Shown: piece by piece, positions 6,886 through 62,713 of the stretch
Layout of the letters: each line of letters begins with the position of its first letter
Position numbering within the stretch: position 1 is the stretch's first letter
Source of the DNA: an uncultured virus (IMG/VR IMGVR_UViG_3300044699_000169)
Lineage: Duplodnaviria > Heunggongvirae > Uroviricota > Caudoviricetes
DNA length: 64,000 nucleotides
IMG/VR virus record: IMGVR_UViG_3300044699_000169
Direction: 5' to 3' (one strand)
Made by a program: the position numbers and the translations under genes
Notes under the pieces: model-generated
Databases searched by the model: none
What the model was told of the DNA's origin: nothing
What the model saw: only the letters and a program-made list of their open reading frames with translations

Positions 6886-6898
6886 CAGGGCCCTCTCC

Positions 6899-11292: not shown

Positions 11293-11464
11293 GAACTACC
11301 TCGGCGGGATGCAGAAGGTGACGAGACGCGTTCCCCTGGGCCGGTGCTTCTTCCGCCACGCCTCCGCACGGGCCTTCGTCTTGGCGGAAGAGGTCTTGAT
11401 CTCGAAGGACTTGATCACGCCTTCTCGCCTGTTGAAGACAGACCAGTAGCAGTCCTTCACGACC

Positions 11465-50276: not shown

Positions 50277-50626
50277 TGGTGGAGGCGGCGGGAGTCGCAC
50301 CCGCGTCCTGGAGAGATTCACGAAGGCGTCTACGCGCGTAGGCGGCGATTTGTTCTCGGTCTCGGGACGATCACCGCCGATCTTCCGTCGACCATATTCC
50401 GGATTGTTTCTTGGAAACCCTTTCCCGGACTCTTCGGGCTTCCCAGCCGATTTTTAACGTCGCATCCCGCCGATCGGCGTAAGCTGGCGCGACGTCGCGG
50501 TCAGGCCGCGAGGGACAGCTGGCGCTTGCCAGTTAGGGTTTTGGTCTCGTTTTTACGCAGCCTCGAGACCGACTGCGGCGCGCGGCTTGTCCGATCCGCA
50601 CTCCAGTCGAAAACTAGTTCGCCCCC
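50277..50626 (-). ncRNA. ssrA: tmRNA, tag peptide (A)GKRQLSLAA
   Basis: 5' GGGGGCG pairs with 3' CGCCTCC-ACCA including G3-U70; TTCGAC after D-like loop; tag ORF 50530-50501 ending LAA-TGA. Confidence 0.93.
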
Positions 50627-51114: not shown

Positions 51115-51726
51115 TCAGGGTTCGAGCTCGACCTCCCAGTATGCACGGCCGAGGAACTGCTCCCAGCTCTCGCGCCGGGCCTTGGGATGGACCTGGGCGA
51201 GCGTCTTCCAGCTTGGCTTCTTCGGCGTCTTGCGAGGAGTCATCCCGGCCTGCTCGAGCGTCTTGTCGGCCTTGCGCTTGTTGCACTCGACGCACGCGAG
51301 CAGACAGTTCTCCCAGGTCGACGTCCCGCCGCGGCTCCGAGGAATCACATGGTCGATCGTGAGCTCCTCCGGACCCGGCTGCTTCCCGCAGTACTGGCAG
51401 GTGTATCGGTCGCGCTTGAAGATGTTCTTCCGCGAGAAGACCACCGACCGCTCGCCACGTCCTTCGTACTCCGTGAGGACGACCACCTCGGGCGGGACGA
51501 TCGCCAGATGCTGGGAGCGGATCAGGCCGTCGCCGACGACCTTCATCGCCTTGGAGACTTCTCCCCAGGAAATCAGGTCATGCCGGTCGAACGTGGCCGG
51601 GTCGATGACGAAAGCCGATCCCTTGGCGACCAGGCCGATCGCGTCCTTGACGGACGTCGTCTGGATGGGATCCCAGCGCCGGTTCAGCACCAGCACCGTG
51701 CGGTCGAGCGCCTTCAAGGCCTCCAC
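51115..51726 (-). CDS. HNH endonuclease (McrA-like)
   Basis: AAGGAGGT-GTG; VLVLN..FSRKNIFKRDRYTCQYCG..TIDHVIPRSRGG..WEN..C..CN. Confidence 0.92.
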   Translation of the reverse strand: MEALKALDRTVLVLNRRWDPIQTTSVKDAIGLVAKGSAFVIDPATFDRHDLISWGEVSKAMKVVGDGLIRSQHLAIVPPEVVVLTEYEGRGERSVVFSRKNIFKRDRYTCQYCGKQPGPEELTIDHVIPRSRGGTSTWENCLLACVECNKRKADKTLEQAGMTPRKTPKKPSWKTLAQVHPKARRESWEQFLGRAYWEVELEP

Positions 51727-51782
51727 GGGCCACCTCCTTGCAGACCTGAGAAAATCGGGCTGGAACGATTCTATCTCGATTC

Positions 51783-51857
51783 TGGTACCCCGGCCAGGAG
51801 TCGCGCCTGGACTTGCGGCTTCGGAGACCGCCGTGCGATCTGTTACACCACCGGGGC
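51783..51857 (-). tRNA. tRNA-Arg(CCG)
   Basis: Cloverleaf, loop CTCCGAA, CCA. Confidence 0.85.
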
Positions 51858-52118
51858 CTGCTCGAGGTATTCGACGATCACGTCTCCGTGGCATGACATC
51901 GGATGGCAGTGGCATCCGAGCTTTTTCCCACGAAGCGCTTCCACATTGGCGCGGAAGGCGTGATCGTTCTTGATCTTGAAGTTGAAATCGGCCCGGTAGA
52001 GCCGAATCACCTCTTGGCGATCACCATCCGGGCCAAGCATGTACGGATTCCCGAACGTGGATCCGCGTCCGATGTAGACGTCGCAGGGGCTGTACCGAAT
52101 ATTGACGACTTGAGTCAC
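51843..52118 (-). CDS. DUF4326 protein
   Basis: VYIGRGSTFGNPY..LRGKKLGCHCHP..CHGDVI. Confidence 0.88.
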   Translation of the reverse strand: MTQVVNIRYSPCDVYIGRGSTFGNPYMLGPDGDRQEVIRLYRADFNFKIKNDHAFRANVEALRGKKLGCHCHPMSCHGDVIVEYLEQAPVV

Positions 52119-52137
52119 CGTACCCAGTATACAATCT

Positions 52138-52213
52138 TGGAACCCCCACCAGGAGTCGCACCTGGACCTCGCACGTTCGAAGCGTGCGATGCGATCTGCT
52201 ACACCATGGGGGC
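52138..52213 (-). tRNA. tRNA-Arg(TCG)
   Basis: Loop CTTCGAA, CCA. Confidence 0.85.
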
Positions 52214-52216
52214 GTG

Positions 52217-52291
52217 TGGTCTCCCAGGAGGGAATCGAACCCTCACCTCCACCTTCGCAGAGTGGCGGGCAATCCGTTACCCCACCGGGAG
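52217..52291 (-). tRNA. tRNA-Arg(GCG)
   Basis: Loop CTGCGAA, CCA. Confidence 0.85.
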
Positions 52292-52299
52292 ATGAATCT

Positions 52300-52373
52300 T
52301 GGAGCCCCCGCCCGGAGTCGCACCGGGCCTTGCGATGTAGGAGATCGCCGGGCGTCTACTACCCCACGGGGGC
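52300..52373 (-). tRNA. tRNA-Arg(CCT)
   Basis: Loop CTCCTAC, CCA. Confidence 0.85.
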
Positions 52374-52374
52374 T

Positions 52375-52451
52375 TGGTCAGGGACCCCGGACTCGCACCG
52401 GGCCTATGCCTGCTTCCAAGGCAGGTAGGGCGCTATCTCCCCATGTCCCTG
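52375..52451 (-). tRNA. tRNA-Pro(TGG)
   Basis: Loop CTTGGAA, CCA. Confidence 0.85.
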
Positions 52452-52457
52452 AAATAT

Positions 52458-52533
52458 TGGTGGGCCGTGCGAGTGTCGATCTCGCGTCAGGCGTTTATGA
52501 GACGCTCGCTCTTTGCCGTTGAGCTAACGGCCC
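52458..52533 (-). tRNA. tRNA(CAT), probably Ile2
   Basis: Loop CTCATAA, GGGCC acceptor. Confidence 0.75.
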
Positions 52534-52543
52534 TCGAGAATAT

Positions 52544-52623
52544 TGGTCCGGGCGGCAGGATTTGAACCTGCGTTACTCCTGTATCCGAAACAGGCGGGTT
52601 AAGCCAGGCTACCCCACGCCCGG
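52544..52623 (-). tRNA. tRNA-Pro(CGG)
   Basis: Loop TTCGGAT, CCA. Confidence 0.85.
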
Positions 52624-52631
52624 ATGAAGTT

Positions 52632-52709
52632 TGGTACACGGGGCGGGATTCGAACCCGCACTACCGACGTTCTCAGCGTCGTGACTCCTGCCAGTTGGTC
52701 TACCCGTGC
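52632..52709 (-). tRNA. tRNA-Leu(GAG), short variable arm
   Basis: Loop CTGAGAA, CCA. Confidence 0.85.
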
Positions 52710-52842
52710 AAGTGTTTTTCGAGTAACTTTTTTTGCCCTTCTGGCTCACTTTTGAACAACATACCTTCCCGGAGAGAGGGGCCCAGTTCCCTATCTCTGA
52801 GGCCGCAGGGATCGCCAGACCTCTGCGGCCTCGTTTTTTTTT

Positions 52843-52916
52843 TGGTGCCCCGCGAGGGAGTTGCACCCCCATCACCTGTATGTGAGACAGGCATTCTGCT
52901 GTTGAAATAGCGGGGC
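52843..52916 (-). tRNA. tRNA-Val(CAC)
   Basis: Loop CTCACAT, CCA. Confidence 0.85.
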
Positions 52917-52917
52917 T

Positions 52918-53000
52918 TGGTGCGGTCGAGAGGATTCGGACCTCCACCCTTTCGGACTGGCTTCTGAGACCAGCGCGTCTACCAGTTCCGCCACGACCGC
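52918..53000 (-). tRNA. tRNA-Leu(CAG)
   Basis: Loop CTCAGAA, variable hairpin, CCA. Confidence 0.88.
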
Positions 53001-53008
53001 AAATCTTT

Positions 53009-53084
53009 TGGTGGGCCTGGAGGGATTTGCACCCCCAAAATCTCGCTCCTAAGGCGAGCGCGTATGCTGTTCCGCCACAGGCCC
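53009..53084 (-). tRNA. tRNA-Leu(TAG), short variable arm
   Basis: Loop CTTAGGA, CCA. Confidence 0.85.
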
Positions 53085-53088
53085 GGGA

Positions 53089-53165
53089 TGGTGCCGCCGG
53101 CGGGACTCGCACCCGCAAGATCCCGGTTTTGAATCGGGCGCGTCTGCTAGTTGCGCCACGGCGGC
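53089..53165 (-). tRNA. tRNA-Leu(CAA), short variable arm
   Basis: Loop TTCAAAA, CCA. Confidence 0.85.
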
Positions 53166-53172
53166 AAATTAT

Positions 53173-53544
53173 TCAGGCGGAAGAAGCTCTCCAAGCCCTG
53201 TTGTATGCAACGCTGACTTCCCGGCATGGTGTACAACGACAGCCTCTACGATATCCGGTTCTCGTGCCGTGCCGAATTGGCCTCCAGCGTTCTTTGGCAG
53301 TCTTCTTTCGGTGGCACCGATCGCAAAGTACTTGGCACTTTGTAAGCTCCGCGTTTCGCCTGGCTTCGGACCAAGACCAGACCCGATGGGTTACTTTTCT
53401 GGAAGGATCTTTATGATCAACCTTCAGATCCCTCCAGGATCCACAGTGCCTACATGGACCATTCTTCTTGATCCACGTTGATTTTCGGCGAGCGATCCAT
53501 TCACGCTGGTATGACCGTTGCTGCCGGACACTTCCATAAGGCAT
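53173..53544 (-). CDS. HNH endonuclease-like protein inside tRNA array
   Basis: CRHCGS..VDHKDP..KCQVLCDRCH..HGT..Y..GCRC..C. Confidence 0.8.
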   Translation of the reverse strand: MPYGSVRQQRSYQREWIARRKSTWIKKNGPCRHCGSWRDLKVDHKDPSRKVTHRVWSWSEARRNAELTKCQVLCDRCHRKKTAKERWRPIRHGTRTGYRRGCRCTPCREVSVAYNRAWRASSA

Positions 53545-53604
53545 GAAACCCCCTCAACCCCACGATGCTGGGATTGTACAGGAGGATCCGAAAGAACTCA
53601 ATTT

Positions 53605-53655
53605 TGGTGCGCTCGGAGGGACTTGCACCCTCAAAAGCCCGGGTAAGAGCCGGGG
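53605..53655 (-). pseudogene. 3' two-thirds of tRNA-Lys(CTT); D-arm and 5' acceptor strand not found
   Basis: Anticodon arm CCCGG-CTCTTAC-CCGGG, T arm and CCA present. Confidence 0.6.
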
Positions 53656-53826
53656 GGCTGTCGATTTCCGCGGGGTCGGACGTGTTAAGCGCATCCTGCG
53701 GTGTTCAGACAAACCTCATTGGAGTCGATCTTCCGCGGGGCTTCCGGACGTGTTAAGCGCATCCTGCAGATATGTTTTCCTGCAGGATCGCCCGGAGTCC
53801 CTCGAGGGATCGACTTCGAAATTTTC

Positions 53827-53901
53827 TGGGTGGCCTCCGGAGGATTTGCAACCCCATCCCCCGGGTAAAAGCCGGGTCATCTGCTGTTGATCTTCGGAGG
53901 C
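53827..53901 (-). tRNA. tRNA-Lys(TTT), 3' part noisy
   Basis: CCCGG-CTTTTAC-CCGGG. Confidence 0.7.
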
Positions 53902-53918
53902 GGATCGGGGAGATGTTT

Positions 53919-54687
53919 TTAAGCGGGAGATTTTCCGTCCGGGCAGCAGTAGACATCGCTCGGAGGGAGAGTTCCCGTGAGACGAATGCCGATAGAAGGG
54001 TCGCTGCCCCCTTGAGCGGTCCACCAAAGTTCACAACCGCAAACACAAAAGCTGGGCCGAATGGCGCTGGCACAATGACGCCGCCAACAACGAGCGGGAT
54101 CATGACCTGTCGATGTATAGAGTTGGAATCCCAAGCAGGGAAACGTTCAGCCCACCGTATGGCCCGCACCGTTTCCCTTTGGCGTCCAGGTGCCGTTGTA
54201 AACCGTTGTCCCGCCGATCTGAACGAACGCAGTGCCGTCGCCGCGCAATGGATTCCGGCGATTCCGTTTCCCGTCGAATCAATAGGTCCCATGCCGTACT
54301 GCATGTTCGGCGATACGATCAGCGGCCCTGGAACTTCCTTGAACGCACCTGTACTGAAATCCCAACGCCGGGGAACTCCGAGAGGCGGCTTGAAGATTAC
54401 TGAGGCACCAGAATCCGGATCCATCAAGACGTTCTGGCCCAGTGAAGACTACGCTTCCGACTACTGTCGCCCATCCGCAGTTTCCCGCCTCGTCACAGCC
54501 CTTAAAAACATTCGCTGAAGAGATTTGCCTCTCGGCAGGAAATCGCAGGAGCTGAACCGCGAGCGGATGAGCCTGACGGCCATAGCCCGCTCGCGGGACC
54601 TCCCAGAGGAGTGACCAGACGCCTTGGGACGCATCGTCCAGATATGGCACGAACGAAATTTACGGGGCAGTACTTTCTTCCGGCCAT
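53919..54687 (-). CDS. frameshifted paralogue of 22247-23077
   Basis: ANVFKGC..GNCGW..GSVVF vs ADLFADC..GNVGW..GTVVF; DVYCCP vs AEFCCP. Confidence 0.55.
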
Positions 54688-54728
54688 GAGACTACTCTAC
54701 CCCTGCAGAAGAGAAGTTTCAAAGCATT

Positions 54729-54805
54729 TGGGTAGCCCGCGTCGGAGTCGCACCCGACATCCTCTGATCGAAAGGCAGAGATCCTACTGTTAGACGAGCG
54801 GGGCC
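54729..54805 (-). tRNA. tRNA-Glu(TTC)
   Basis: Loop CTTTCGA, TCGTCTA D-arm start. Confidence 0.75.
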
Positions 54806-54812
54806 ATGATCG

Positions 54813-55013
54813 GTTCCACAAGGGGGTGGCCTGGTTCGCCATCTGACGATGGTTCGTCACCCTTGCTCCGGGCAGCGTGGACTATGTACACTGCCGTCCC
54901 GGGGGGCCGCTTATTCTGCCTCGACGACCTACCTCGCGATCTGCGCCCTTTCGGCGCGGCCGATAGATCGTTGGAATTCGATTCCCGCGCGGCAGGCCAC
55001 CCTCTTGTGGGAA
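54813..55013 (-). ncRNA. unclassified ~200-nt structured RNA
   Basis: 18-bp closing stem CCACAAGAGGGTGGCCTG/CAGGCCACCCCCTTGTGG with internal hairpins; strand assumed. Confidence 0.55.
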
Positions 55014-55090
55014 ACGAAAGTAAGATCTCCTGGTGTTTTGGGATCTGGGTTGTAGCTAAAATTCTTCCTGAAGCTCGAAAGGAGAGCGGA

Positions 55091-55589
55091 ATGTTCCAGG
55101 AAGACCTTCTTGAGACAGCTCCCGTTTCAGGGATCCCCGTTCACGCGCACCCGCATGGGCCAGAATGGACCGCTCCCCGATGTGCCTGCCCCGGAACCCG
55201 CACCGATGCCGGAACCTGAACCCGCGCCGGAGCCCGCTCCAGAACCGGAGCCTCTCCCCCTTCCCCCTCCTCCTCCCCCAGCAGACTGCAAGCGCCTCGG
55301 AGTTCCCTTCAGAGAGAACGGATCGTGCCTCCAGCTCTTCGAATGCAAGCAGCCGGATGGAACGATCACCTACAAGAAGGAGCCCGCAAGCTGCCCTCCT
55401 CGGCCTCGTCCTCCGATCTACTACTTTCCGTACATTCCCCCGATCTACTACTCGCCCTACCCTCCAGAATCTCGGGAAGCGGCTTTCGAATTCGATGCCG
55501 GAGAGAAGAAGACCACGATCGAAGAAGCTGCGCCATATGCTCTCGGCGCCGTCGGGATCGCGGCCGCGCTCTACGCGATCTTCAGCTAA
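55091..55589 (+). CDS. Pro-rich MGQ-motif protein with C-terminal TM anchor (5' frameshift)
   Basis: AAGGAG-ATG 55091; RTRMGQNG; PEPAP repeats; ALGAVGIAAALYAIFS. Confidence 0.7.
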
Positions 55590-55592
55590 ATC

Positions 55593-55666
55593 TGGCAGGC
55601 CGCCAGGGATTCGCACCCTGTCCGCCGGTTTGAAGGACCAGCATCCTACTCATAGACGAGCGGCCC
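55593..55666 (-). tRNA. tRNA-Glu(TTC) with C33
   Basis: CTGGT-CCTTCAA-ACCGG, G73, CCA. Confidence 0.7.
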
Positions 55667-55671
55667 AAGAT

Positions 55672-55745
55672 TGGTAGCCTCAGCGAGATTCGCACTCGCT
55701 CCTGCACCTTGAGAGGGTGCCGACCTACTCATAGTCGATGAGGCC
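55672..55745 (-). tRNA. tRNA-Glu(CTC)
   Basis: Loop CTCTCAA. Confidence 0.85.
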
Positions 55746-55746
55746 G

Positions 55747-55822
55747 TGGTACCCCCCGGCAGGAATTGCACCCGCACTTCCGAGGTAGAAGCTCGGCGCG
55801 CTATCTGTTACGCGACAGGGGC
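55747..55822 (-). tRNA. tRNA-Arg(TCT)
   Basis: Loop CTTCTAC. Confidence 0.82.
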
Positions 55823-55827
55823 AAGAT

Positions 55828-55913
55828 TGGCACCACGGGTAGGATTCGAACCTACATACTCTTTCGAGCGCCTCATTAACAGTGAGGTGGGCTACCGATT
55901 ACCCGACCGTGGT
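55828..55913 (-). tRNA. tRNA-Asn(GTT) with long variable arm
   Basis: Loop CTGTTAA; variable region CGCTCGAAAGAGTAT. Confidence 0.85.
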
Positions 55914-55914
55914 A

Positions 55915-55990
55915 TGGAGCCGGTGGCGAGCTCTGCCCTCGCCGCCTCCGAGTTACGAACTCGGCGCTCTGCTGAATGAGCTACACCGGC
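55915..55990 (-). tRNA. tRNA-Thr(CGT)
   Basis: Loop TTCGTAA. Confidence 0.82.
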
Positions 55991-56000
55991 TTGAAGTTTT

Positions 56001-56075
56001 TGGAGCACCGTCCGGGGATCGAGCCCGGTCATGACCGCTTTGCAGGCGGCCGCGTTCCCATTTCGCCAACGGTGC
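56001..56075 (-). tRNA. tRNA-Cys(GCA)
   Basis: Loop CTGCAAA, U73. Confidence 0.85.
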
Positions 56076-56078
56076 AAG

Positions 56079-56154
56079 TGGTAGCGGGAGGGGGAGTTGA
56101 ACCCGCCGTCTCGGAGTTATGAGCCCCGCGTGATGACCGTATCACTACCCCGCA
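56079..56154 (-). tRNA. tRNA-fMet(CAT)
   Basis: 1-72 mismatch, GGG anticodon stem, loop CTCATAA. Confidence 0.78.
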
Positions 56155-56231
56155 TCGGAGATCGCCGACCGGAAGCCGTCGTGCTGAGCACGCTATCCTG
56201 GCTCGATCGAACGACTGGTGACCTTCAATAT

Positions 56232-56322
56232 TGGCGGAAGGTGCGAGAGTCGAACTCGCCGCCCGTCTTAGGGGCCCGTGTTTAGCAAACACGTCTCGCT
56301 AACCGATATCGAGCTACCTTCC
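56232..56322 (-). tRNA. tRNA-Ser(GCT)
   Basis: Loop TTGCTAA, long arm, G73. Confidence 0.88.
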
Positions 56323-56323
56323 A

Positions 56324-56411
56324 TGGCGGAGGCGACAGGAGTCGAACCTGCACGGCCGGTTAAAGCCGGCTCGCTTCCAACGAGCTGGGCCTGCCAGTGC
56401 CCAACGCCTCC
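56324..56411 (-). tRNA. tRNA-Ser(GGA)
   Basis: Loop TTGGAAG, long arm. Confidence 0.85.
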
Positions 56412-56485
56412 ATGAGGCCGGACTTGATGGATCCAGCTCGAGGGCGAAATCACAGAGAAGCTCGCCCACCATCTCTGATCAGTTT

Positions 56486-56573
56486 TGGCGGAGACGGCGT
56501 GACTTGCACACGCGCTCCCTTTCGGGGTCCACCGCTTTCAAGGCGGGGCGGCACGCTCACTGCCTTCGTCTCC
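56486..56573 (-). tRNA. tRNA-Ser(TGA)
   Basis: Loop CTTGAAA, long arm. Confidence 0.85.
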
Positions 56574-56654
56574 GTGTGGTAGAATTTTCACAGCCTTCGA
56601 AAGGCGTTTCCCTCTCCCGAGCCCAGGCACTTCGCCTGGGCTCGAATTTTTTTT

Positions 56655-56748
56655 TGGCGGAGAGCTGAGGTCTTGATCCCCATGCCCGGTTGTGCCGGGC
56701 ACCATCCCGTTTCGAGCGGGCGGCGAGTTCTCACTCGCTTAACTCTCC
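56655..56748 (-). tRNA. tRNA-Ser(CGA)
   Basis: Loop CTCGAAA, long arm. Confidence 0.82.
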
Positions 56749-56749
56749 A

Positions 56750-56824
56750 TGGTACCAGCCGACGGATCTGCCCCGTCACTTTCGGCTTATGAAACCGACG
56801 TCATTCTCGTTAGACCAGGCTGGC
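56750..56824 (-). tRNA. tRNA-Met(CAT), elongator-like
   Basis: Loop TTCATAA. Confidence 0.75.
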
Positions 56825-56907
56825 GGATCTTGGTAGAATTTCTCCTATACATACCGCCTTTGGGCCAGGGGAATAGAGATCTCCATTCTCCTGGCCTTTG
56901 TTTTTTC

Positions 56908-56982
56908 TGGAGCTGGCGACCGGTCTTGCACCGGCATCTGTCCGCTTACAAAGCGGGGGCTCTGCTGTTGAGCTACGCCAGC
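56908..56982 (-). tRNA. tRNA-Thr(TGT)
   Basis: Loop TTTGTAA. Confidence 0.85.
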
Positions 56983-57048
56983 GTGTGATACAATCCGATC
57001 ACTAGACCCGCCCAGGGCCCGGGGTTGTTCCCCGGGCTTTTTTATTTC

Positions 57049-57124
57049 TGGAGCCGGCGGCGGGTGCTGCCCCCGCACCTCGGCATTACCAATGCCGCAT
57101 TCAGAGCTGCTAAACTACGCCGGC
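57049..57124 (-). tRNA. tRNA-Thr(GGT)
   Basis: Loop TTGGTAA. Confidence 0.82.
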
Positions 57125-57237
57125 GTGAACAACGGGAGCGGGGCCCGGGTCAGCCCCTCGCGAAGGCGCACACCCTCGATCCTTGCCAGCCCGAGCCCCG
57201 CCACCAGAGTTAGGGGTCTGAGTGGTCCGGTCGATTT

Positions 57238-57435
57238 CAGTGTACACCGCCGATGAATCTGCTGAAGGCGTAAAGGACGAGCGCTGCGAGGACCGAGGAT
57301 CCAGAGCCAGCATCCGAGCGGCATCCGCGACACCATCCCGCTTCCGTCGTAGGGCCTATCGGGAGGTTTCCTGGAGGTCTTCTCCTGGCGCTGCATTTCC
57401 GCAGCACGTCTCAGGATCTCTTCCTTGCGACTCAT
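57238..57435 (-). CDS. small membrane protein (one apparent extra base)
   Basis: MSRKEEILRR..GCWLWIL, then VLAALVLYAFSRFIGGVH-stop in shifted frame. Confidence 0.5.
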
Positions 57436-57453
57436 GGAAGCATCTTACAAGAT

Positions 57454-57527
57454 TGGTGGGCACGGCTGGAATTGCACCAGCATCTCATCCATGTCACGGA
57501 TGCATTCTGCTTTTGAAATACGCGCCC
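57454..57527 (-). tRNA. tRNA-Val(GAC)
   Basis: Loop GTGACAT. Confidence 0.82.
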
Positions 57528-57530
57528 GAA

Positions 57531-57832
57531 CGAAGCGTTCGCTGACCTCGGTTTAGCCCCCACACTCGCCTGCTGGACGCTTTAGCCGGTACTTCAGAGC
57601 CCGCGCTCCCTTTATGGCGTCTCTCGCTTTCGCGGCAGGGCTGACACAAATCTTGGAAGCTCTTCACTTCCCCGGCCCGGCCATGATCATCTCCAAAAGG
57701 CATGTGGTCGAATAGCGGACCCGAAGGCCCTGCCACTCCTTCGTCCTCCGAGGCGGCTTGAGACATGGAGACTTACGTGGGTCGTTTCGCGCCGTGATCG
57801 CGTCGACTTTCACCGACAGACCGAACGCTTCG
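57531..57832 (-). ncRNA. unclassified ~300-nt structured RNA
   Basis: Ends CGAAGCGTTCG/CGAACGCTTCG pair perfectly; fills the Pro-Val spacer; strand assumed. Confidence 0.55.
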
Positions 57833-57838
57833 AAGATC

Positions 57839-57915
57839 TGGTCGGGCTCCGCGGACTTGCACCGCGCTTACTCCTGCACCCCAAGCAGGCGGGTCGCTAT
57901 CTACCCCTGAGCCCG
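57839..57915 (-). tRNA. tRNA-Pro(GGG)
   Basis: Loop TTGGGGT. Confidence 0.85.
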
Positions 57916-58125
57916 TTATGGATCAAGACTTCGGTGCATGGCGTCCTTCATGCGCTGACGATATTCGTCCCAACGCTTGGTCTTCTTGGGGCACACGGCG
58001 CAGGCGATCGCTGCCTTGAGCGTGGAGCTCCAGACCCAGTGATGGATCCCGAAGACGCAAAGCAACCTGGAGAGCCAATTGAATTTCGAGCTCTCAACTC
58101 TCCAGGACGGATCGACATGAGGCAT
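57916..58125 (-). CDS. small phage protein (DUF1660-like)
   Basis: RLLCVFGIHHW..CAVC. Confidence 0.6.
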   Translation of the reverse strand: MPHVDPSWRVESSKFNWLSRLLCVFGIHHWVWSSTLKAAIACAVCPKKTKRWDEYRQRMKDAMHRSLDP

Positions 58126-58148
58126 CGTCCCCATTGTACATCGAATCT

Positions 58149-58222
58149 TGGAGGGACCAGTGGGAGTCGAACCCACCCTGGCCGGGTCACAGCCGACCGT
58201 GCCGCCGCAACACTTTGGCCCC
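58149..58222 (-). tRNA. tRNA-His(GTG)
   Basis: Loop CTGTGAC. Confidence 0.82.
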
Positions 58223-58230
58223 ATAAGATT

Positions 58231-58305
58231 TGGTCGGCGTGGATGGTTCCGCCCCATCTTCTTCCGGTTATCAACCGGATGCTCTAGCTACTGAGCTACA
58301 CGCCG
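58231..58305 (-). tRNA. tRNA-Ile(GAT)
   Basis: Loop TTGATAA. Confidence 0.82.
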
Positions 58306-58315
58306 ATGAAAATCT

Positions 58316-58389
58316 TGGACGGGGTGACCGGTAATGATCCGGCTTCTCCTCCTTGGCAAAGAGGCGCACTACCTTTGTGCTACACCCCG
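58316..58389 (-). tRNA. tRNA-Gly(GCC)
   Basis: Loop TTGCCAA, U73. Confidence 0.82.
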
Positions 58390-58399
58390 AAAAATTTTC

Positions 58400-58478
58400 T
58401 GGTTGCCCGGGAAGGAATCGAACCTTCGTCCACCCGCTTCAAAGGCGGAGCTCCGATACCAACACAGAGTGCCGGGCA
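58400..58478 (-). tRNA. tRNA-Gln(TTG)
   Basis: Loop CTTTGAA, U1-A72. Confidence 0.82.
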
Positions 58479-58479
58479 A

Positions 58480-58572
58480 TGGTGGGAGCTGGAGGAGTTG
58501 AACCTCTCGTCCTTAACCGCCGCTCTTGTTTTGGGACAACGGTTTTACAGACCGCCGAGCGGACCAGCGCCC
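58480..58572 (-). tRNA. atypical tRNA-Tyr(GTA) lacking a D hairpin
   Basis: GCGGT-CTGTAAA-ACCGT, T arm, ACCA; D region about 9 nt, variable region about 30 nt. Confidence 0.7.
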
Positions 58573-58581
58573 AGGGAAATT

Positions 58582-58657
58582 TGGTGGATCCGGCGAGCTT
58601 TGCTCTCGCTACCTCCTGCTTGCAAAGCAGGCGCTCTCCTGATTGAGCTACGGACCC
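58582..58657 (-). tRNA. tRNA-Ala(TGC)
   Basis: Loop TTTGCAA, G3-U70. Confidence 0.85.
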
Positions 58658-58664
58658 GAAAGAT

Positions 58665-58739
58665 TGGTGGACCCAGGCGGTTCCGCCCCGCCGTCTGCCG
58701 ATTGCGAACCGGCCGCTCTCCTGATTGAGCTATGGGCCC
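58665..58739 (-). tRNA. tRNA-Ala(CGC)
   Basis: Loop TTCGCAA, G3-U70. Confidence 0.85.
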
Positions 58740-58740
58740 G

Positions 58741-58815
58741 TAGCAGAGGCAGGATTTGAACCTGCAAGCCCCAGGTTATGAGCCTGGTGAGGTCACCGGA
58801 TGCCTCTCCTCTGCA
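58741..58815 (-). tRNA. tRNA(CAT), initiator-like, CCA not encoded
   Basis: Loop CTCATAA, 1-72 mismatch. Confidence 0.72.
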
Positions 58816-58820
58816 AGATT

Positions 58821-58894
58821 TGGTGGATCCAGGGAGAATCGCACTCCCGCCTCGAGCGTGCCACGCTCGCGTCCTCCTGCTAGACGATGGACCC
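58821..58894 (-). tRNA. tRNA-Ala(GGC)
   Basis: Loop GTGGCAC, G3-U70. Confidence 0.82.
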
Positions 58895-58969
58895 TGGTGC
58901 CGGCCTCCGGTGCTGCCCCGGACGCCTCCCGCTTTTCAGACGGGCGCTCTACTGCTGAGCTAGACCGGC
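58895..58969 (-). tRNA. tRNA-Phe(GAA)
   Basis: Loop CTGAAAA. Confidence 0.82.
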
Positions 58970-59140
58970 GAGTAATTCTTCTGCCCGAAGCACGATCCCG
59001 AGCGCGTAGGCCCAACGTCTGAACCCTGGAATCTCGAGCTCGTATCTTTCGATGATCGTTTCCCCGGCCCTCCAGCCGTCTCTCCGGATCGTCCACCCAT
59101 ACTCGGTGAGCGCCTGGATCCGCTTCTCCCGATCGTCCAT
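58949..59140 (-). CDS. small hypothetical protein
   Basis: GGAGG RBS; stop falls inside tRNA-Phe. Confidence 0.45.
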   Translation of the reverse strand: MDDREKRIQALTEYGWTIRRDGWRAGETIIERYELEIPGFRRWAYALGIVLRAEELLAGLAQQ

Positions 59141-59229
59141 GCAGCACCTCCACAGGTATCGCGTCTGGATCGAGAGGGGTGTGACAAAGAATGAAAAATA
59201 GGCTAGAATCCCCCGGCAAGGGGGAACTT

Positions 59230-59551
59230 ATGAGCGAACTGCTGCAGGTCACGGACAAGAACTTCGACGAGGCGCTCAAGGCGCCGCTGGCGATCATTGA
59301 GTTCTGGGCGCCCTGGTGCCCGGGCTGCAAGGCCGCCAAGCCCACGATCGCCAAGATCGCCGGCGAGCTCCAAGGTCAGGTGCTCGTCGTCGGAGCCGAC
59401 ATCGACGAAGCGCCAAAAGCCACCGAGAGGCACGAGGTCACCTCGATCCCGACGCTCGTCTTCTTCAGGGACGGCAAGGAGTTCTACCGCATCGACGGGA
59501 CGACTCCTACCGGCGCCTCATGCCCGACATCAAGAGCCGATTCGGATCTGA
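59230..59551 (+). CDS. trxA: thioredoxin (C-terminal frameshift in this read)
   Basis: EFWAPWCPGCK, SIPTLVFFRDGK. Confidence 0.85.
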
Positions 59552-59555
59552 AGAT

Positions 59556-59631
59556 TGGTTCCCACGCCAGGATTCGAACCTGGAATCTCCACGGTCAGAA
59601 CGTGGCGTCCTACCGGTTAGACGACGTGGGA
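59556..59631 (-). tRNA. tRNA-Gln(CTG)
   Basis: Loop TTCTGAC. Confidence 0.88.
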
Positions 59632-59716
59632 GTAAAGGGCGACACGCACCAGCGAGCGCGCGTTCGACTTGTCGGTGCAGGCTCATCGCGCGGAGCCCGT
59701 TACATCGCCCGAAGCT

Positions 59717-59792
59717 TGGCGCCCCTGATGGGATTCGAACCCACGGTCTCCTCCGTGACAGGGAGGCGGGGACTCCACTCCCCTACAGAGGC
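59717..59792 (-). tRNA. tRNA-Asp(GTC)
   Basis: Loop CTGTCAC, G73. Confidence 0.88.
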
Positions 59793-59803
59793 GTTTTCAA
59801 TTT

Positions 59804-59877
59804 TGGCATGCCGGAGAGGAGTCGCACCTCTACCCGCTGACTTGGAAACAGCGATGCTGCTGCTACACCACCGGCAT
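59804..59877 (-). tRNA. tRNA-Trp(CCA)
   Basis: Loop TTCCAAG, G73. Confidence 0.8.
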
Positions 59878-59878
59878 G

Positions 59879-59953
59879 TGGAGCGGGCAGCGGGACTTGC
59901 ACCCGCGATCTTCTCCTTGGGAAGGAGACGCGTTGCTTCTACGCTACGCCCGC
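59879..59953 (-). tRNA. tRNA-Gly(CCC)
   Basis: Loop TTCCCAA. Confidence 0.85.
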
Positions 59954-59956
59954 ATG

Positions 59957-60030
59957 TGGACCGCCTGACCGGAGTCGCACCGGCATCATCTGGGTGGAAA
60001 CCAGACGCTCTGCTGTTGAGCTACAGGCGG
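59957..60030 (-). tRNA. tRNA-Gly(TCC), first tRNA of the array
   Basis: Loop TTTCCAC. Confidence 0.85.
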
Positions 60031-60049
60031 ACGAAAGGCGCGTCACCGC

Positions 60050-60078
60050 TTGAAGATTTCATCCCCCTCGCGTATACT
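60050..60078 (+). promoter_or_regulatory. sigma70-type promoter for a plus-strand structured RNA
   Basis: TTGAAG-17-TATACT. Confidence 0.6.
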
Positions 60079-60294
60079 CGCTTCCCGAGCGTGTGACGGC
60101 CTGGCATTGAGGTCGGGGAGGCCCACCCTTCCCGGATGGGCCTCCCCTTCCGATCTTTGTCGTTCCAGCCCGATTTTCAAGTGCGGCGCGCGCCAACGCG
60201 CCGCGGCTTCCTGGCTCAGGGGCCCGGCCGGAGCCGATGGCGTCCTGAGTCCCTGGTATCCGCCCACCGACCTTCCAAGGTCGGTGGGTACAAC

Positions 60295-60339
60295 AAAAAA
60301 ACCCCCGCGTCCTTTCGGGCGCGGGGGTTTCAGTTTTTT
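60295..60339. terminator. bidirectional intrinsic terminator / attenuator hairpin
   Basis: Minus strand CCCCCGCGCCC-GAAA-GGACGCGGGGG plus U7; plus strand followed by TTTCAGTTTTTT. Confidence 0.85.
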
Positions 60340-60349
60340 CGAGCTCTTG

Positions 60350-60511
60350 TTACATCACCATCGCCCCCGCGCCCGTCTGTTCGATGGTTCGATTCCCGGC
60401 GGGCTTGCTGCACGTCGCCGGGGAATACGAACCCACGAACAGAGACCAAGCCTGCCGATGGAGGATCTCCATCGTTGGCCTTTGGTCTCGGACGCAGGGT
60501 AGTGATCTCAC
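60350..60511 (-). CDS. putative codon-sampling attenuator leader peptide (53 aa)
   Basis: AAGGAG at 60528-60523, GTG start; MRSLPCVRDQRPTMEILHRQAWSLFVGSYSPATCSKPAGNRTIEQTGAGAMVM; codons 46-50 are complementary to the terminator 5' arm. Confidence 0.65.
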   Translation of the reverse strand: MRSLPCVRDQRPTMEILHRQAWSLFVGSYSPATCSKPAGNRTIEQTGAGAMVM

Positions 60512-60552
60512 GGAAGGTCCGTCTCCTTGTTCGGTGGTCCTGTTACATGAAC

Positions 60553-60581
60553 AACGTAGCCGCCGAAAGGTTCGGTGTCAA
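60553..60581 (-). promoter_or_regulatory. sigma70-type promoter at head of tRNA array
   Basis: TTGACA-17-TACGTT with upstream T8 tract. Confidence 0.8.
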
Positions 60582-60600
60582 GCGGAAAAAAAATCGAATT

Positions 60601-61407
60601 CTAGAAGGCGCCAGGACGACGCACGAGATGGACCTGGCCGAGCATTGCCCGCCCCATCGTGAAAGGGGTCGCCGTCGTCATCGGCGTCGTCAAAGCCGAC
60701 GATACGAGACCCGACGAAACACACATGCCGCCGCGGACGAGCCTCGCGGTGCCTGCCGGCAACCGCTAGTTCTCCAGTCAACGCTGGCGACCGGTGGCGG
60801 AGTTTCGATGAGCTCGGCGGCTCAGGCGAGGGACTGGCTCGCCCGTCGGATACGGAATCTCCTCGGGCCACTCGTTCAATTCGTGCGGCGCAGTGCTGGG
60901 GCCTCCAGTCGACGGAAGGAACATCCAGGGGGCTGAGTTGCAATTGCTCTTCGAGCGAAGTCGATGGGATTTGGAATTTCCTGGAGGCCAGTTCGTAGCC
61001 AGACTCCGTTCCGAAATCCACGGGCGCAGTGTTCCATTTCTCTTCAAGAGCGGCGATCTTATCGAGACACCCGTTGTAGGCGTCCACCGCATCGGTGTAA
61101 GTCTGATATTCCGTATCTCCAGATTCTTCTCTGTCGATAGTAATGGCTCTTGTGCGTCCTCCATGTTCGCTGTAAGGATCTCGCATTCCTGTTCTTTTCC
61201 TTGAATTTTCGAGGCGTGGAGCGCCCTGCGCTCCATCTCTCTGGCGACTCCTCGGAAAATGGAGCGTGAAGGAGGTATCTCTTCGGGACTGGAGCTGGCT
61301 CTACCGGTAATGCGATGGTACGCGCCCCACGGATCCGTGAATTCGACTTGACCCAAAGACCGAGATCCGGGAACTCTGAGAGGAACCCGACCCAAGAACG
61401 GGCGCAT
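60601..61407 (-). CDS. LGQ-motif protein, paralogue of 23088-24083 (frameshifted)
   Basis: MRPFLGRVPLR..SLGQ start; ends ATPFTMGRAMLGQVHLVRRPGAF-stop in another frame. Confidence 0.65.
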
Positions 61408-61423
61408 AGGCTTTCCTCCGAAC

Positions 61424-61618
61424 CTATCGGGAACGCCGCCCGCCGCCGAGCGTCGTCGTTGTGGGACGGCAAAGGCCGCGAGGGCCCACCTTCATTCCGG
61501 GAGGACATTTCGGGGGCCCAGCGTAAGCCGGCGGGAGGCCGCCGCCCCAGGAAGACGGGCCCAAATTGAGCGGAACCTGACCGATGGACTTTGCTGGGGT
61601 GGGCTTGGAGTTCGTCAT
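61424..61618 (-). CDS. small Pro-rich IGQ-motif protein
   Basis: AAGGAG RBS; SIGQVPL, CPPG..GLC. Confidence 0.55.
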   Translation of the reverse strand: MTNSKPTPAKSIGQVPLNLGPSSWGGGLPPAYAGPPKCPPGMKVGPRGLCRPTTTTLGGGRRSR

Positions 61619-61684
61619 ATCCCGAAATCTCCTTACGATCTGCACTCTACCACGGAGCCGTCAAAATGGCCAAGGCATTCGAGA

Positions 61685-62713
61685 TCAGAGGGGTCCACCG
61701 CTTCTCTTGAATGCCCCAAACGGCATCGTCCAGGCGGCGCCGGCCTGGGCGTATCCGTGTGGGAGTTCGTCGCTCATCGCCATTCGGATCATGTCAGGAT
61801 CGTCAGGGACGTAGCTACGGCCCTTTGACGCGATGCGCTCGATGTCACCTCCCTGCTGGATCGTGCGACCGAACTGGCGCTCATAGTTCAAGATCCGCCA
61901 GAACATCCGAGGGTTCACTGCGTTCGCACTCGCCCACTGGTCTGGATTCCCGAAGATGCAGAACATGCACGAGACGCGGCCCCATCCCAGGTAGTAGGCC
62001 GGATGAGGTCGGATCCCCCAACGTTGGATGATTTCCCAGACGCGCTCTTCGGGCCAGTCGATGATCGCGCGCCACTGATCGACCCGACGAGACTGCGTGG
62101 TCGACTTGTGCTTCTCGACCTCGGCATAGCGGGCTGCGTGTTGTTCGATTCCTGGCGGCGCTCTCCGTGAGTCTCATAGATATCTTCCCGCTCTTGAAGC
62201 GCGGATTCATTATTGATCGCAGAATTTGCAACGTCGATCTTGAGGATTGCCGAGCACCACCGGGTCCGGAGGTCCGCCACCGCAGCAGAGAAACATGAGG
62301 CGCGTGTTTGGGCTCCCCCGGTCCCGCCGGCCTGTCCGATCGAGGCCGTCTGGGAGCTGGAACCCGATCTTCGCCGTCGGTGCATCCTGTTTGTTGATCT
62401 CCCCGCTCGAATCCGCCTTCCCGCCACTGGAACTTGATCGGAAGCCCAAGGCCCGGGCGACGTCCTTGCAGTAGCTCTCCGTACAAGGCCAGTCAAAGAA
62501 GCGCGGGTCGATGCCGGACGCCCATCGACGGCCTGAGTGCCAGAGCTCGATCTGTCCTCTCCCTCTCGGGATCCCCCCGCAGCTCTAGGGCGTGAAGCAC
62601 GCAGGCTGAGAGAGTCCTTCCCCCCAGAAAAGGGACACGATGACGTGGTCATAACCGTCAAGGGGAAGGAAGCTCCGGACGTGTCTCGCCGGATTCTCGG
62701 TCGGAAGAGGCAT
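61685..62713 (-). CDS. PAPS reductase family (PP-loop) protein, frameshifted
   Basis: YDHVIVS.SGGKDSL; RWCSAILKID; AYYLGWGRVSCMFCIF. Confidence 0.75.

Follow-up and report, generated by a model that had tools for sequence, protein, structure and literature searches.

Amino-acid operons are attenuated by leaders such as trpL and hisL, and by the multivalent leaders of ilv and thr. Translation in general is sensed by other leaders, among them that of pyrBI and the peptides that respond to antibiotics, and T-boxes sense tRNA. Phage tRNA arrays are usually viewed either as constant aids to codon usage or as substitutes for tRNAs that host defenses destroy. To our knowledge, control of their expression is largely uncharted, and we know of no translation-sensing leader of the pyrBI or antibiotic type located before tRNA genes; literature searches returned no description of a leader-peptide attenuator gating phage tRNA genes. 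We analyzed a 64-kb stretch of soil-phage DNA (the window), in which a short ORF and a terminator precede a large tRNA array on the minus strand. Judging from the sequence, we modestly favor the reading that this leader is a ribosome-mediated (leader-peptide) transcription attenuator heading the phage tRNA operon; we infer that transcription starts at the promoter, that ribosomes translate the ORF, and that the terminator and the switch work.

The leader was compared among 11 sequences, the window and 10 metagenome contigs, which comprise five versions and two haplotypes, about 94% alike (leader alignment, 349 columns). In the window, a sigma-70-type promoter, TTGACA-17-TACGTT (60553..60581, minus strand), has no mismatches to TTGACA-N17-TANNNT. 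Directly upstream of its -35 hexamer, a T8 tract (60586..60593, minus strand) can be read in the sequence, which may be UP-element-like; a T6-T8 run is found at this place in 11/11 sequences. Because the -10 hexamer matches the consensus at only 3/6 positions, a consensus promoter scan made no call there. As in attenuators, a ribosome-binding site and a start codon lie near the promoter: a Shine-Dalgarno-like AAGGAG (60523..60528, minus strand) is followed, after 11 nt, by a GTG at 60511 that opens a listed ORF of 53 codons plus TAA (60350..60511, minus strand; 54 codons plus TGA in haplotype B). The 11-nt spacing is borderline, lying outside the 4-10 nt measured in 16 phage genes in which a 5-6-mer Shine-Dalgarno sequence precedes the ORF's first start codon. 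An intrinsic terminator is predicted at 60330-60295 (-24.4 kcal/mol, U7), 265 nt upstream of the first tRNA. The promoter, AAGGAG, 53-codon ORF and U7 terminator were all present where the original prediction had placed them. The coding log-odds of the whole ORF are neutral, at 0.015 per codon versus 0.09-0.32 for genes. Codons 14-53 are gene-like, with a mean log frequency of -3.91 versus -3.84 in coding windows, and fall within the top 10.6% of non-coding windows by the same measure. Gene callers predicted the ORF on few contigs, and there solely from an internal start, and the peptide matched no Pfam family.

The array downstream (51783..60030, minus strand; ARAGORN and Rfam) consists of 46 tRNA genes with 42 anticodons covering all 20 amino acids, of which 35 were called by ARAGORN at default settings, 7 by relaxed ARAGORN, and 4 were identified manually at Rfam hits. 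A raiA-motif RNA, an opposite-strand thioredoxin gene, and HNH and DUF4326 genes interrupt the array. The spacer from the terminator to the first tRNA (60031..60294, minus strand) is structured, with five hairpins (z-score of -10.3 for 517 nt). In its helix 60098-60093 / 60046-60041, two pairs are changed on both sides in a compensatory manner, and several spacer G.U pairs are compatible with the minus strand only. This covariation and these G.U pairs indicate that a functional minus-strand RNA exists downstream of the terminator. A 19-nt perfect inverted repeat brackets the array, with its 5' arm at 60160..60178 (minus strand) and the other arm just beyond the last tRNA (51750..51768); together, the repeat and the covarying helix point to one long transcript starting upstream of 60178. 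The promoter scan called no other sigma-70-like site on the minus strand from the terminator to 54722, and inside the array promoter-like sites occur at 54722-54694 and 53601-53573. The latter was considered as the promoter of a leader and dropped; it heads an inserted HNH-like gene.

These data also bear on a quite improbable alternative, namely that the leader is a separate small RNA gene producing a structured RNA of ~250 nt, or a constitutive terminator, and that the tRNAs are transcribed from other, unrecognized promoters. The strength of the terminator and its U7 would fit such a gene, phage-specific promoters would evade a sigma-70 scan, and trans action has a precedent in attenuator-derived RNAs, which are reported to be able to act in this way (PMC6614838). 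Yet the scan called nothing promoter-like on the minus strand between the terminator and the first tRNA (265 nt), and the single long transcript indicated by the repeat and the covarying helix would begin upstream of 60178. The minimum-energy fold of the full transcript, a compact four-way junction closed by A:D (segments described below) in both haplotypes, likewise suits a small RNA, but a static fold leaves unexplained the perfect B:C helix and the correction of mismatches in B:C and A:D.

Four segments of the leader, all on the minus strand, can pair in alternative ways. Segment A (60489..60499, codons 5-8), the equivalent of attenuator segment 1, pairs with B or D. Segment B (60364..60375, codons 46-50, CGGGCGCGGGGG) corresponds to segment 2 and would be the 5' strand of the antiterminator, segment C (60316..60327) corresponds to segment 3 and is the 5' arm of the terminator, and segment D (60295..60312), the equivalent of segment 4, comprises the 3' arm (60312-60302) and U7 (60301-60295). 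The calculated duplex energies are -22.8 kcal/mol for A:B, -29.7 for B:C, -21.8 for C:D and -22.7 for A:D, and by these assignments the cross pairs B:C and A:D beat A:B and C:D. The sequence CGGGCGCGGGGG (60375-60364) complements 60327-60316 perfectly over 12 bp, the terminator's own stem C:D carries one C.A mismatch, and wherever A:B or C:D has a mismatch, B:C and A:D restore the pair. None of 1000 shuffles equalled the best helix between C and the 215 nt upstream, 4/1000 matched the helix between the 5' region and the B region, and the z-score of the leader fold was -8.3. The 12-bp antiterminator is therefore stronger than the terminator stem (-29.7 versus -21.8 kcal/mol), as had been proposed, and the attenuator geometry came out stronger than claimed, because the extra segment A completes the 1:2 / 2:3 / 3:4 layout. 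Segments A and B are separated by 112 nt, which hairpins P2 (60442..60488) and P3 (60378..60441) span according to folding; the arms of P3 resemble a tRNA T-arm and its complement. These hairpins, very stable and conserved, take up 112 nt of the ORF and are superfluous in the classical model.

The terminator stem pairs better on the plus strand, where a G.U replaces the C.A, and a promoter-like site on that strand (60050-60078) points toward it. A plus-strand terminator was rejected, as conservation of the U tract adjoining the stem is confined to the minus strand, which is also the strand that accommodates the G.U pairs in A:B, in P2 and in the hairpins farther downstream. Across 60030-60640, the Rfam 15 covariance models gave nothing at the gathering score, solely weak terminator-hairpin matches (E 0.006-10), and inspection by eye for consensus features revealed no convincing T-box-type bulge, boxA-like element or put-like hairpin pair.

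A:B (P1), P2 and P3 form a three-way junction with junctions of just 0-2 nt. In an unlikely alternative reading, this junction binds a protein, RNA or metabolite that stabilizes or opens A:B, and the reading frame and AGGAG are incidental. Such a platform, in which the 3' strand of P1 is shared with the antiterminator, would be riboswitch-like, its stems are under selection, and an open frame is cheap here. In fact, 28% of shuffles of the leader ORF were stop-free, meaning that a 53-codon open frame is common in this sequence, and on the opposite strand the same DNA contains ORFs 150 and 266 codons long. Short junctions and variable loops are, however, the opposite of a ligand pocket, and Rfam offered no match for such an RNA even at E up to 10. 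The ligand-binding reading also leaves unexplained the codon diversity, the gene-like codons 14-53 and the conserved AGGAG and start codon.

In the ribosome-mediated attenuator that we favor, the host-type promoter at 60581-60553 would start an RNA of ~250 nt ending at C:D and U7. Without a ribosome, either A:B and then C:D or B:C and then A:D would form, D would always be paired, and the helix abutting U7 would stop transcription. A ribosome reaching the end of the ORF would cover B, so that C:D would form and transcription would terminate. A ribosome lingering on the first dozen codons would instead hide A, allowing B:C to form, leaving D single-stranded and permitting read-through into the 46 tRNA genes. 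The signal would be slow decoding, that is, scarcity of usable tRNA, and negative feedback would likely follow once the array is expressed.

The ribosome was modelled as a 30-nt mask in equilibrium folding of the leader. In the absence of a ribosome, D paired with A or C with a probability of 0.91. A P site within codons 3-11 lowered this value to 0.01-0.15 in the window, and to 0.01-0.42 and 0.02-0.68 in the relatives L013 and L016, respectively; with the P site at codons 13-52, it stayed at 0.80-0.91. The sensitive stretch is distinctive in codon usage: codons 3-13 are rich in rare codons (geometric-mean RSCU, 0.78 versus 1.23), and A-site codons with RSCU below 0.7 make up 5/11 there versus 6/40 later. 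Since the rare codons near the leader start (TCA, CTA or AGA, CGA, CAA and CCA) have their readers encoded in the array, slow decoding is the likely signal. The original prediction had stalling at any codon free the antiterminator. Equilibrium folding with the ribosome mask freed the 3' arm of the terminator solely at P-site codons 3-11 and left the terminator paired at 13-52.

The same mechanism in its broader form, in which stalling almost anywhere along the 53 codons would flip the switch and the leader samples nearly every array tRNA, is possible but rather doubtful. The equilibrium result for codons 13-52 stands against it, although on kinetic grounds a ribosome between A and B would unfold P2 and P3 and delay the long-range A:B and A:D helices, whereas the local B:C helix could form immediately. 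The diversity of the ORF argues in its favor. On recounting, we obtained the same 39 distinct codons in 53 sense codons, the same representation of all 20 amino acids and the same stretch of 31 codons (codons 2-32) in which no codon is used twice. The ORF calls on 36/42 array anticodons, so that the broad coverage proposed for it stands and the earlier figure, 37 of about 44, does not. GTA and TTA are among the 22 codons absent from the ORF, and Val-TAC and Leu-TAA tRNAs are absent among the array's 42 distinct anticodons, both as originally noted. Among 5000 stop-free dinucleotide shuffles of the leader ORF, at least 39 distinct codons (P=0.031), at least 36 anticodons called (P=0.0002) and all 20 amino acids (P=0.018) were seldom reached, and a non-repeating run of at least 31 codons appeared in 0/5000. 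Compared with all 49,059 stop-free 53-codon windows in the 64 kb, the distinct codons, the non-repeating run and the anticodons called gave P values of 0.0033, 0.00045 and 0.0004, respectively.

Codon and anticodon diversity is far above that of ORF shuffles, which favors a leader sensing nearly all codons. The 31-codon run, however, is ordinary as the maximum of the whole 64-kb window: 21/60 Markov simulations of 64 kb contain a run of at least 31, and the next-longest runs in the window are 29, 28 and 28. The proposed codon diversity is accordingly rare against the leader's own shuffles and 53-codon windows, but not as a 64-kb maximum. All 11 versions call on 35-36 anticodons despite 9 codon differences, and in a random-change simulation at least 36 anticodons were retained in 9%. 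In 9/10 relatives, the non-repeating run shrinks to 24-25, and CTA, a rare codon singled out in the original prediction, is lost from haplotype B. The homologues therefore keep the open frame (11/11) and the anticodon coverage, and lose the 31-codon run.

Near-identical DNA was found in 20 runs from soil, roots and rhizosphere, representing 15 studies; among the 22 runs listed for the sequence none was an RNA run, and the four examined were DNA contigs. The leader is about 94% conserved, versus 70-78% for the upstream DNA. Invariant in 11/11 sequences are the promoter including its spacer, AGGAG, GTG, segments A-D, the P3 stems and U7, whereas the bases beside AGGAG and the loops and spacers of the leader vary. 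Variable sites fall at 11/159 paired versus 21/93 unpaired positions (Fisher P=6e-4). In P3 both arms are invariant, and variation is confined to the apical loop (60412, 60408); in P2 the basal stem is retained, and the apical part is altered in haplotype B by a 3-nt insertion. The outer A:B helix (60506-60500 with 60360-60354) is missing in haplotype B and L016, and no covarying pair was found in A, B, C, D, P2 or P3 among relatives at least 94% alike in the leader.

The reading frame is open in 11/11 sequences across 12 substitutions and one in-frame 3-nt insertion, with the stop rebuilt 3 nt on, and a third peptide variant, P0002, is open too. Retention of the ORF is nevertheless weak evidence, because in a neutral simulation the frame stays stop-free in 61% and an indel is in frame by chance 1 time in 3; the frame would survive by chance in about 1 case in 5, among relatives too similar for covariation. 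The haplotype changes in the ORF comprise 7 non-synonymous and 3 synonymous ones, distributed 2/5/4 over the codon positions, and the peptide sequence is under no constraint.

That the leader is a decayed set of tRNA-derived inverted repeats without regulatory function, or a small protein gene, is very improbable. Short stretches of the leader do look like tRNA parts, sense or antisense: 18/21 bases agree between 60506-60486 and the antisense of the 5' end of tRNA-Met (56079-56154), and T-arm-like 15-16-mers occur in the leader. The leader is, however, better conserved than the DNA upstream, its variation avoids stems, no tRNA was called in it, and the peptide of a supposed small protein gene is not conserved and belongs to no family. 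A tRNA pseudogene within the ORF was also considered and dropped; neither ARAGORN, also with relaxed settings, nor Rfam called one, and the resemblances are merely 15-21 nt long. Further relatives were not returned by blastn against a phage collection, by searches of viral contigs with a 21-mer of P3 and a 26-mer of tRNA-Gly, or by protein scans with ORF 60578-61186, which is probably not a gene, and ORF 61685-61966. The virion protein had only relatives at about 40% identity.

Leaders before other phage tRNA arrays were also examined. In the cultured Erythrobacter phage vB_EliS-L02 (OL955261.1), three promoter-led leader ORFs precede tRNA blocks and match the amino acids of their own blocks at 20/27, 15/19 and 22/26 (shuffle P <0.0002, 0.0022 and 0.0004), versus just 0-7 for other blocks. 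The soil-phage leader mirrors its array as well (36/42 anticodons, P=2e-4; 20 amino acids, P=0.018). Because the L02 leaders match their own blocks, this kind of element appears to exist elsewhere, and a codon-matched leader before a tRNA block can be read in the genome of an unrelated cultured phage. Like the soil-phage leader, the L02 leaders have a sigma-70-like promoter, a T-rich stretch upstream of it and a short tRNA-matched ORF, with AAGGA 14 nt before the start, and leader 1 has a strong terminator 6 nt upstream of the first tRNA, resembling that of the soil phage. The two systems share no sequence similarity, and L02 has three leaders for three partial blocks, whereas the soil phage has one leader for a complete set. 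An antiterminator in L02 leader 1 was judged marginal, being weak (-18.6 kcal/mol) and equalled in 54/1000 shuffles. The L02 leaders mirror their blocks along the whole length and not just at the start, which favors sensing at nearly every codon. The main text of the L02 paper uses none of the terms terminator, attenuat- or leader (PMC9127768). In Roseobacter phage DSS3P8, 0/10 tRNA gaps with an ORF of 15-70 codons hold a block-matched leader, so that the expectation of such ORFs before other arrays held for L02 and failed for DSS3P8.

If the attenuator reading is correct, tRNA supply would govern tRNA synthesis in a feedback loop through a leader that reads decoding speed, the attenuation principle would reach beyond amino-acid operons to the translation apparatus, and the leader would provide a compact sensor of tRNA availability transferable to reporters. 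Its occurrence in 20 runs from 15 studies suggests that the element is common in nature, and L02, with its cultured host, offers an experimental system for the analogue. Were nearly every codon sensed, tRNA shortage caused by host shut-off, anticodon nucleases or starvation would elicit a full replacement set on demand, and the array would be shut off again once decoding recovers; together with the L02 leaders, this would amount to a widespread, undescribed regulation of tRNA genes by translation speed.

Among the known systems, trpL/hisL-type attenuators share with the soil-phage leader the promoter, the short ORF, the 1:2 / 2:3 / 3:4 segments and the intrinsic terminator with its U tract, as well as a segment 1 that lies within the ORF and a stop codon whose position would let a ribosome ending translation cover segment 2. 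Runs of codons for one sensed amino acid are absent from the leader ORF, and because it lacks such regulatory runs it is a variant, not a full member, of the leader-peptide attenuators. Unlike these attenuators, it precedes tRNA genes and not biosynthetic enzymes, and it combines near-maximal codon diversity with a rare-codon cluster over segment 1 and no single-codon runs. Two conserved hairpins fill the 112 nt between its segments 1 and 2, its segment 1 can also pair with segment 4, and its ORF is long, at 53-54 codons. With pyrBI-type leaders, it would share a signal that is the position or speed of the ribosome and not the charging of one tRNA; those leaders, however, gate enzymes, resistance genes or toxins, and in them the ribosome reads through the terminator, or Rho is involved. 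As in T-boxes and HK022 put, a structured leader RNA would set the fate of a downstream terminator. Unlike a T-box, the soil-phage leader has no Rfam T-box match and no bulged antiterminator, and whereas the segments of the soil-phage leader would compete with the terminator for pairing, elements of the put type do not.

The window is phage DNA with a G+C content of about 0.60, encoding a collagen-repeat tail fibre, a phrog_1645 virion protein and an HNH endonuclease. Its minus strand carries 46 tRNA genes at 51783-60030: 35 were found by ARAGORN with default settings, 7 with relaxed settings, and 4 (Thr-CGT, Thr-GGT, Phe-GAA and Tyr-GTA) were picked out manually among Rfam tRNA matches. Together they have 42 distinct anticodons covering all 20 amino acids; as originally predicted, Val-TAC and Leu-TAA are absent from the 46 genes. 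A tmRNA gene lies beyond the array (50277-50626; ARAGORN and Rfam). Every tRNA gene inspected has a terminal CCA, and in many cases a common ATCTTG-like spacer motif comes next; this motif, repeat family D3, has 10 copies in 51783-60030. The array also holds a raiA-motif RNA (57533-57830, minus strand; RF03072, 104.3 bits, gathering score 101.3, E 3.5e-25) between tRNA-Pro(GGG) and tRNA-Val(GAC). Mid-array on the opposite strand is a thioredoxin gene (59191-59550, plus strand; Pfam E 8.5e-23), where a promoter-like GTGACA-17-TAGAAT (59181-59209) was found and 266-274 nt are skipped by some metagenome contigs. Other genes are inserted in or beside the array (53173-53544, 51115-51915 and 51843-52118, all minus strand); an HNH-like ORF, with motifs read by eye and its own promoter-like TTGAGT-17-TACAAT, an HNH endonuclease (Pfam) and a DUF4326 protein are encoded there. 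A 19-nt perfect inverted repeat flanks the whole 8.4-kb array, one arm (60178-60160, minus strand) within the leader and the other (51750-51768, plus strand) directly past the last tRNA; complementarity stops at 19 nt. Were the array transcribed as one long RNA, these arms could pair into a 19-bp stem resembling the processing stems that flank rRNAs.

Every feature of the original prediction was recovered in place on the minus strand: a promoter sequence match, TTGACA-17-TACGTT (60581-60553); AAGGAG (60528-60523); a 53-codon leader ORF (60511-60350); a terminator with U7 (60330-60295); and 60375-60364, which is complementary to 60327-60316 over 12 bp without a mismatch. Promoter activity and termination are inferred. 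The promoter scan covered sigma-70-type sites. Shine-Dalgarno sites precede 29 of 62 likely phage genes, and the leader's spacing of 11 nt to its GTG is borderline compared with 4-10 nt in the 16 genes with 5-6-mer motifs. The terminator is bidirectional, and a plus-strand promoter-like TTGAAG-17-TATACT (60050-60078), kept in both families of leader sequence (haplotypes), faces it at 60299-60330; transcription from this site could cross the spacer and yield an antisense RNA about 250 nt long. Parts of the leader resemble pieces of tRNA (60506-60486, 60437-60422 and 60397-60383): one stretch is antisense to the 5' end of tRNA-Met (56079-56154) at 18 of 21 bases, and there is a T-arm-like 16-mer together with its complement. 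The switch may have been built from tRNA-gene fragments.

We then analyzed the pairings available to this RNA. The predicted fold of the stretch from about 60546 to 60288 (259 nt) is much more stable than those of shuffled sequences (z -8.3), and the same holds for the 517 nt that reach to the first tRNA (z -10.3). To the segments B (60375-60364), C (60327-60316) and D (60312-60302, the terminator 3' arm) of the original prediction we added segment A (codons 5-8, 60499-60489), which pairs with B; all four are on the minus strand. A:B closes a three-way junction holding two long hairpins, P2 (60488-60442) and P3 (60441-60378). The A:B duplex (-22.8 kcal/mol) has two G.U pairs and C:D (-21.8 kcal/mol) one C.A mismatch, and every flaw is mended in the cross pairs B:C (-29.7 kcal/mol, perfect) and A:D (-22.7 kcal/mol). 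No shuffle of the upstream 215 nt (0/1000) gave a pairing with C as good as that of B, and 4 of 1000 equalled the pairing between the 5' region and the B region. The predicted geometry, with B:C perfect and stronger than C:D, stands; with A, the modelled segments provide the full 1:2, 2:3 and 3:4 set of a classical attenuator, from which the leader differs in that segment 1 can additionally pair with segment 4.

The original prediction held that a ribosome stalled at any codon would cause antitermination. We folded RNAs ending at the 3' end of D at equilibrium, masking 30 nt around the P site as a simple stand-in for the ribosome, and read out the probability that D pairs with A or C. Without a ribosome, this value was 0.91 in the window, in a haplotype B locus and in a recombinant locus. 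With the P site at codons 3-11 it fell to 0.01-0.15, 0.01-0.42 and 0.02-0.68, respectively, and at codons 13-52 it was 0.80-0.91, 0.81-0.91 and 0.80-0.91. A second run with slightly different RNA ends showed the same trend. Because D loses its pairing only at codons 3-11, what the model supports is a switch open only as long as the ribosome hides A. The attenuator layout is present, and opening by a stall at any codon is neither supported nor contradicted by equilibrium mask modelling, beyond whose reach kinetic and steric effects lie; a ribosome that has moved deeper into the ORF might yet block the long-range A:B and A:D helices. We consider any-codon opening, which is counted within our estimate for attenuation as a whole, doubtful. 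A-site codons in the sensitive stretch include TCA, CTA (AGA in haplotype B), CGA, CAA and CCA, with RSCU values of 0.15-0.69 in the 62 likely phage genes. Values below 0.7 were found for 5 of 11 codons in this stretch versus 6 of 40 later ones, and its rare codons are all read by array tRNAs.

In the leader ORF, all 20 amino acids are encoded by 39 distinct codons, with no repeat from codon 2 to codon 32. By the wobble rules applied here, it calls on 36 of 42 anticodons, where the original prediction counted 37 of about 44. We compared the ORF with 5000 stop-free dinucleotide shuffles and with all 49,059 stop-free 53-codon windows within the 64 kb. At least 39 distinct codons occurred with P=0.031 and P=0.0033, respectively; a non-repeating run of at least 31 in 0/5000 shuffles and with P=0.00045; at least 36 anticodons with P=0.0002 and P=0.0004; and all 20 amino acids with P=0.018 and P=0.0068. 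The other two frames are ordinary (runs of 18 and 17). As the maximum of 64 kb, the run is ordinary: it heads a continuous distribution in which the next loci have 29, 28 and 28, and 21 of 60 Markov-simulated 64-kb sequences contained a run of at least 31. The diversity is therefore notable if the site was chosen first and not if the site was picked for diversity. The missing GTA and TTA say little, since both are A/T-rich in a G+C-rich sequence and are 2 of 22 unused codons.

Near-identical DNA was found in 20 soil, root and rhizosphere runs from 15 studies, none recorded as an RNA run, and the second haplotype in contigs from four runs. A metagenome-contig scan anchored on the first tRNA yielded 10 loci, two on contigs of 156 and 98 kb; together with the window, these represent five leader versions, which fall into two haplotype families and are about 94% alike. 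Upstream of 60790, similarity drops to 70-78% or the DNA cannot be aligned. At 60760-61240, almost no contig cover was seen in four runs, one contig diverges at 60759, and 60793-61011 does not align in haplotype B loci; the DNA immediately preceding the conserved promoter is variable. Nothing in 60600-61685 is convincing as a gene. The promoter and its spacer, AGGAG, GTG, segments A-D, both P3 arms and U7 are invariant in all 11 sequences. Variable sites fall at 11 of 159 paired versus 21 of 93 unpaired positions (Fisher P=6e-4); the outer 7 bp of A:B are absent from haplotype B and the recombinant L016. No pair within the switch covaries among these relatives, which are too close to part structure from frame. 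As a rival reading, an RNA switch with a non-ribosomal trigger is judged unlikely.

The ORF is open in all 11 sequences (53 or 54 codons) despite 12 substitutions and a 3-nt insertion that preserves the frame; immediately ahead of the stop, two 1-nt insertions shift it by 3 nt and change it from TAA to TGA. In haplotype B, codon 2 is ATG. This conservation lends real but weak support to leader translation, weak because 61% of equally diverged copies in a neutral simulation also stayed stop-free (9% with at least 36 anticodons). The peptide as such is not conserved: the codon changes (7 non-synonymous, 3 synonymous) spread across all codon positions. A protein search found two clusters only, both called from an internal start and one of them a third leader variant, 83% identical. 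Coding log-odds were neutral for the whole ORF (0.015 per codon, versus 0.09-0.32 in genes), and codons 14-53 alone were gene-like (top 10.6% of non-coding windows, 24th percentile of coding windows). That the element is a set of tRNA-derived relics or a small protein gene seems very improbable.

Downstream of the terminator, the helix 60098-60093/60046-60041 shows two compensatory changes, and many G.U pairs there are compatible with the minus strand only, on which grounds RNA reaching past the terminator is under selection. These observations bear on the alternative that the promoter and terminator delimit a separate small RNA, with the tRNAs started elsewhere, which we regard as decidedly unlikely. 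With modest confidence, we conclude that the element is probably a ribosome-mediated attenuator preceding the tRNA array.

A phage-collection search with the array returned single-tRNA matches only, one of which led to Erythrobacter phage vB_EliS-L02 (OL955261.1). A term search of the main text of its paper (PMC9127768) found no terminator, attenuat- or leader. Its array has three strong sigma-70-like promoters, each followed by a short ORF (28, 20 and 27 codons; leaders at 8185-8420, 9776-9958 and 11354-11505). Each ORF is composed largely of residues for which its own downstream block supplies tRNAs (20/27, 15/19 and 22/26; shuffle P <0.0002, 0.0022 and 0.0004), compared with 0-7 matches to other blocks. 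Leader 1 has a strong terminator past the ORF, 6 nt upstream of tRNA-Pro; leaders 1 and 2 have a common 5' hairpin and AAGGA 14 nt upstream of ATG, and the leader 3 ORF starts at about the transcription start. Separately, a very structured RNA of about 560 nt (6380-6940, plus strand), which appears to be non-coding and matches no Rfam family at gathering score, separates a promoter-like TTGACA site from the array's first tRNA-Glu. Erythrobacter phage XM05 has homologous leaders. The block-matched design is not universal, because none of the 10 ORF-bearing tRNA gaps of Roseobacter phage DSS3P8 has an ORF matched to its block. By analogy, a leader mirroring its block ahead of a complete tRNA set would use nearly everything, as the window's ORF does.

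Full-text searches of literature other than subscription journals turned up no account of phage tRNA genes being controlled by a leader peptide. The element would work on the principle of trp- and his-type attenuation. There, runs of a single regulatory codon are a defining feature of the leader, whereas the leader here has none and would gate tRNA genes; on these two grounds, we set it apart as a candidate variant of trp/his-type attenuation.
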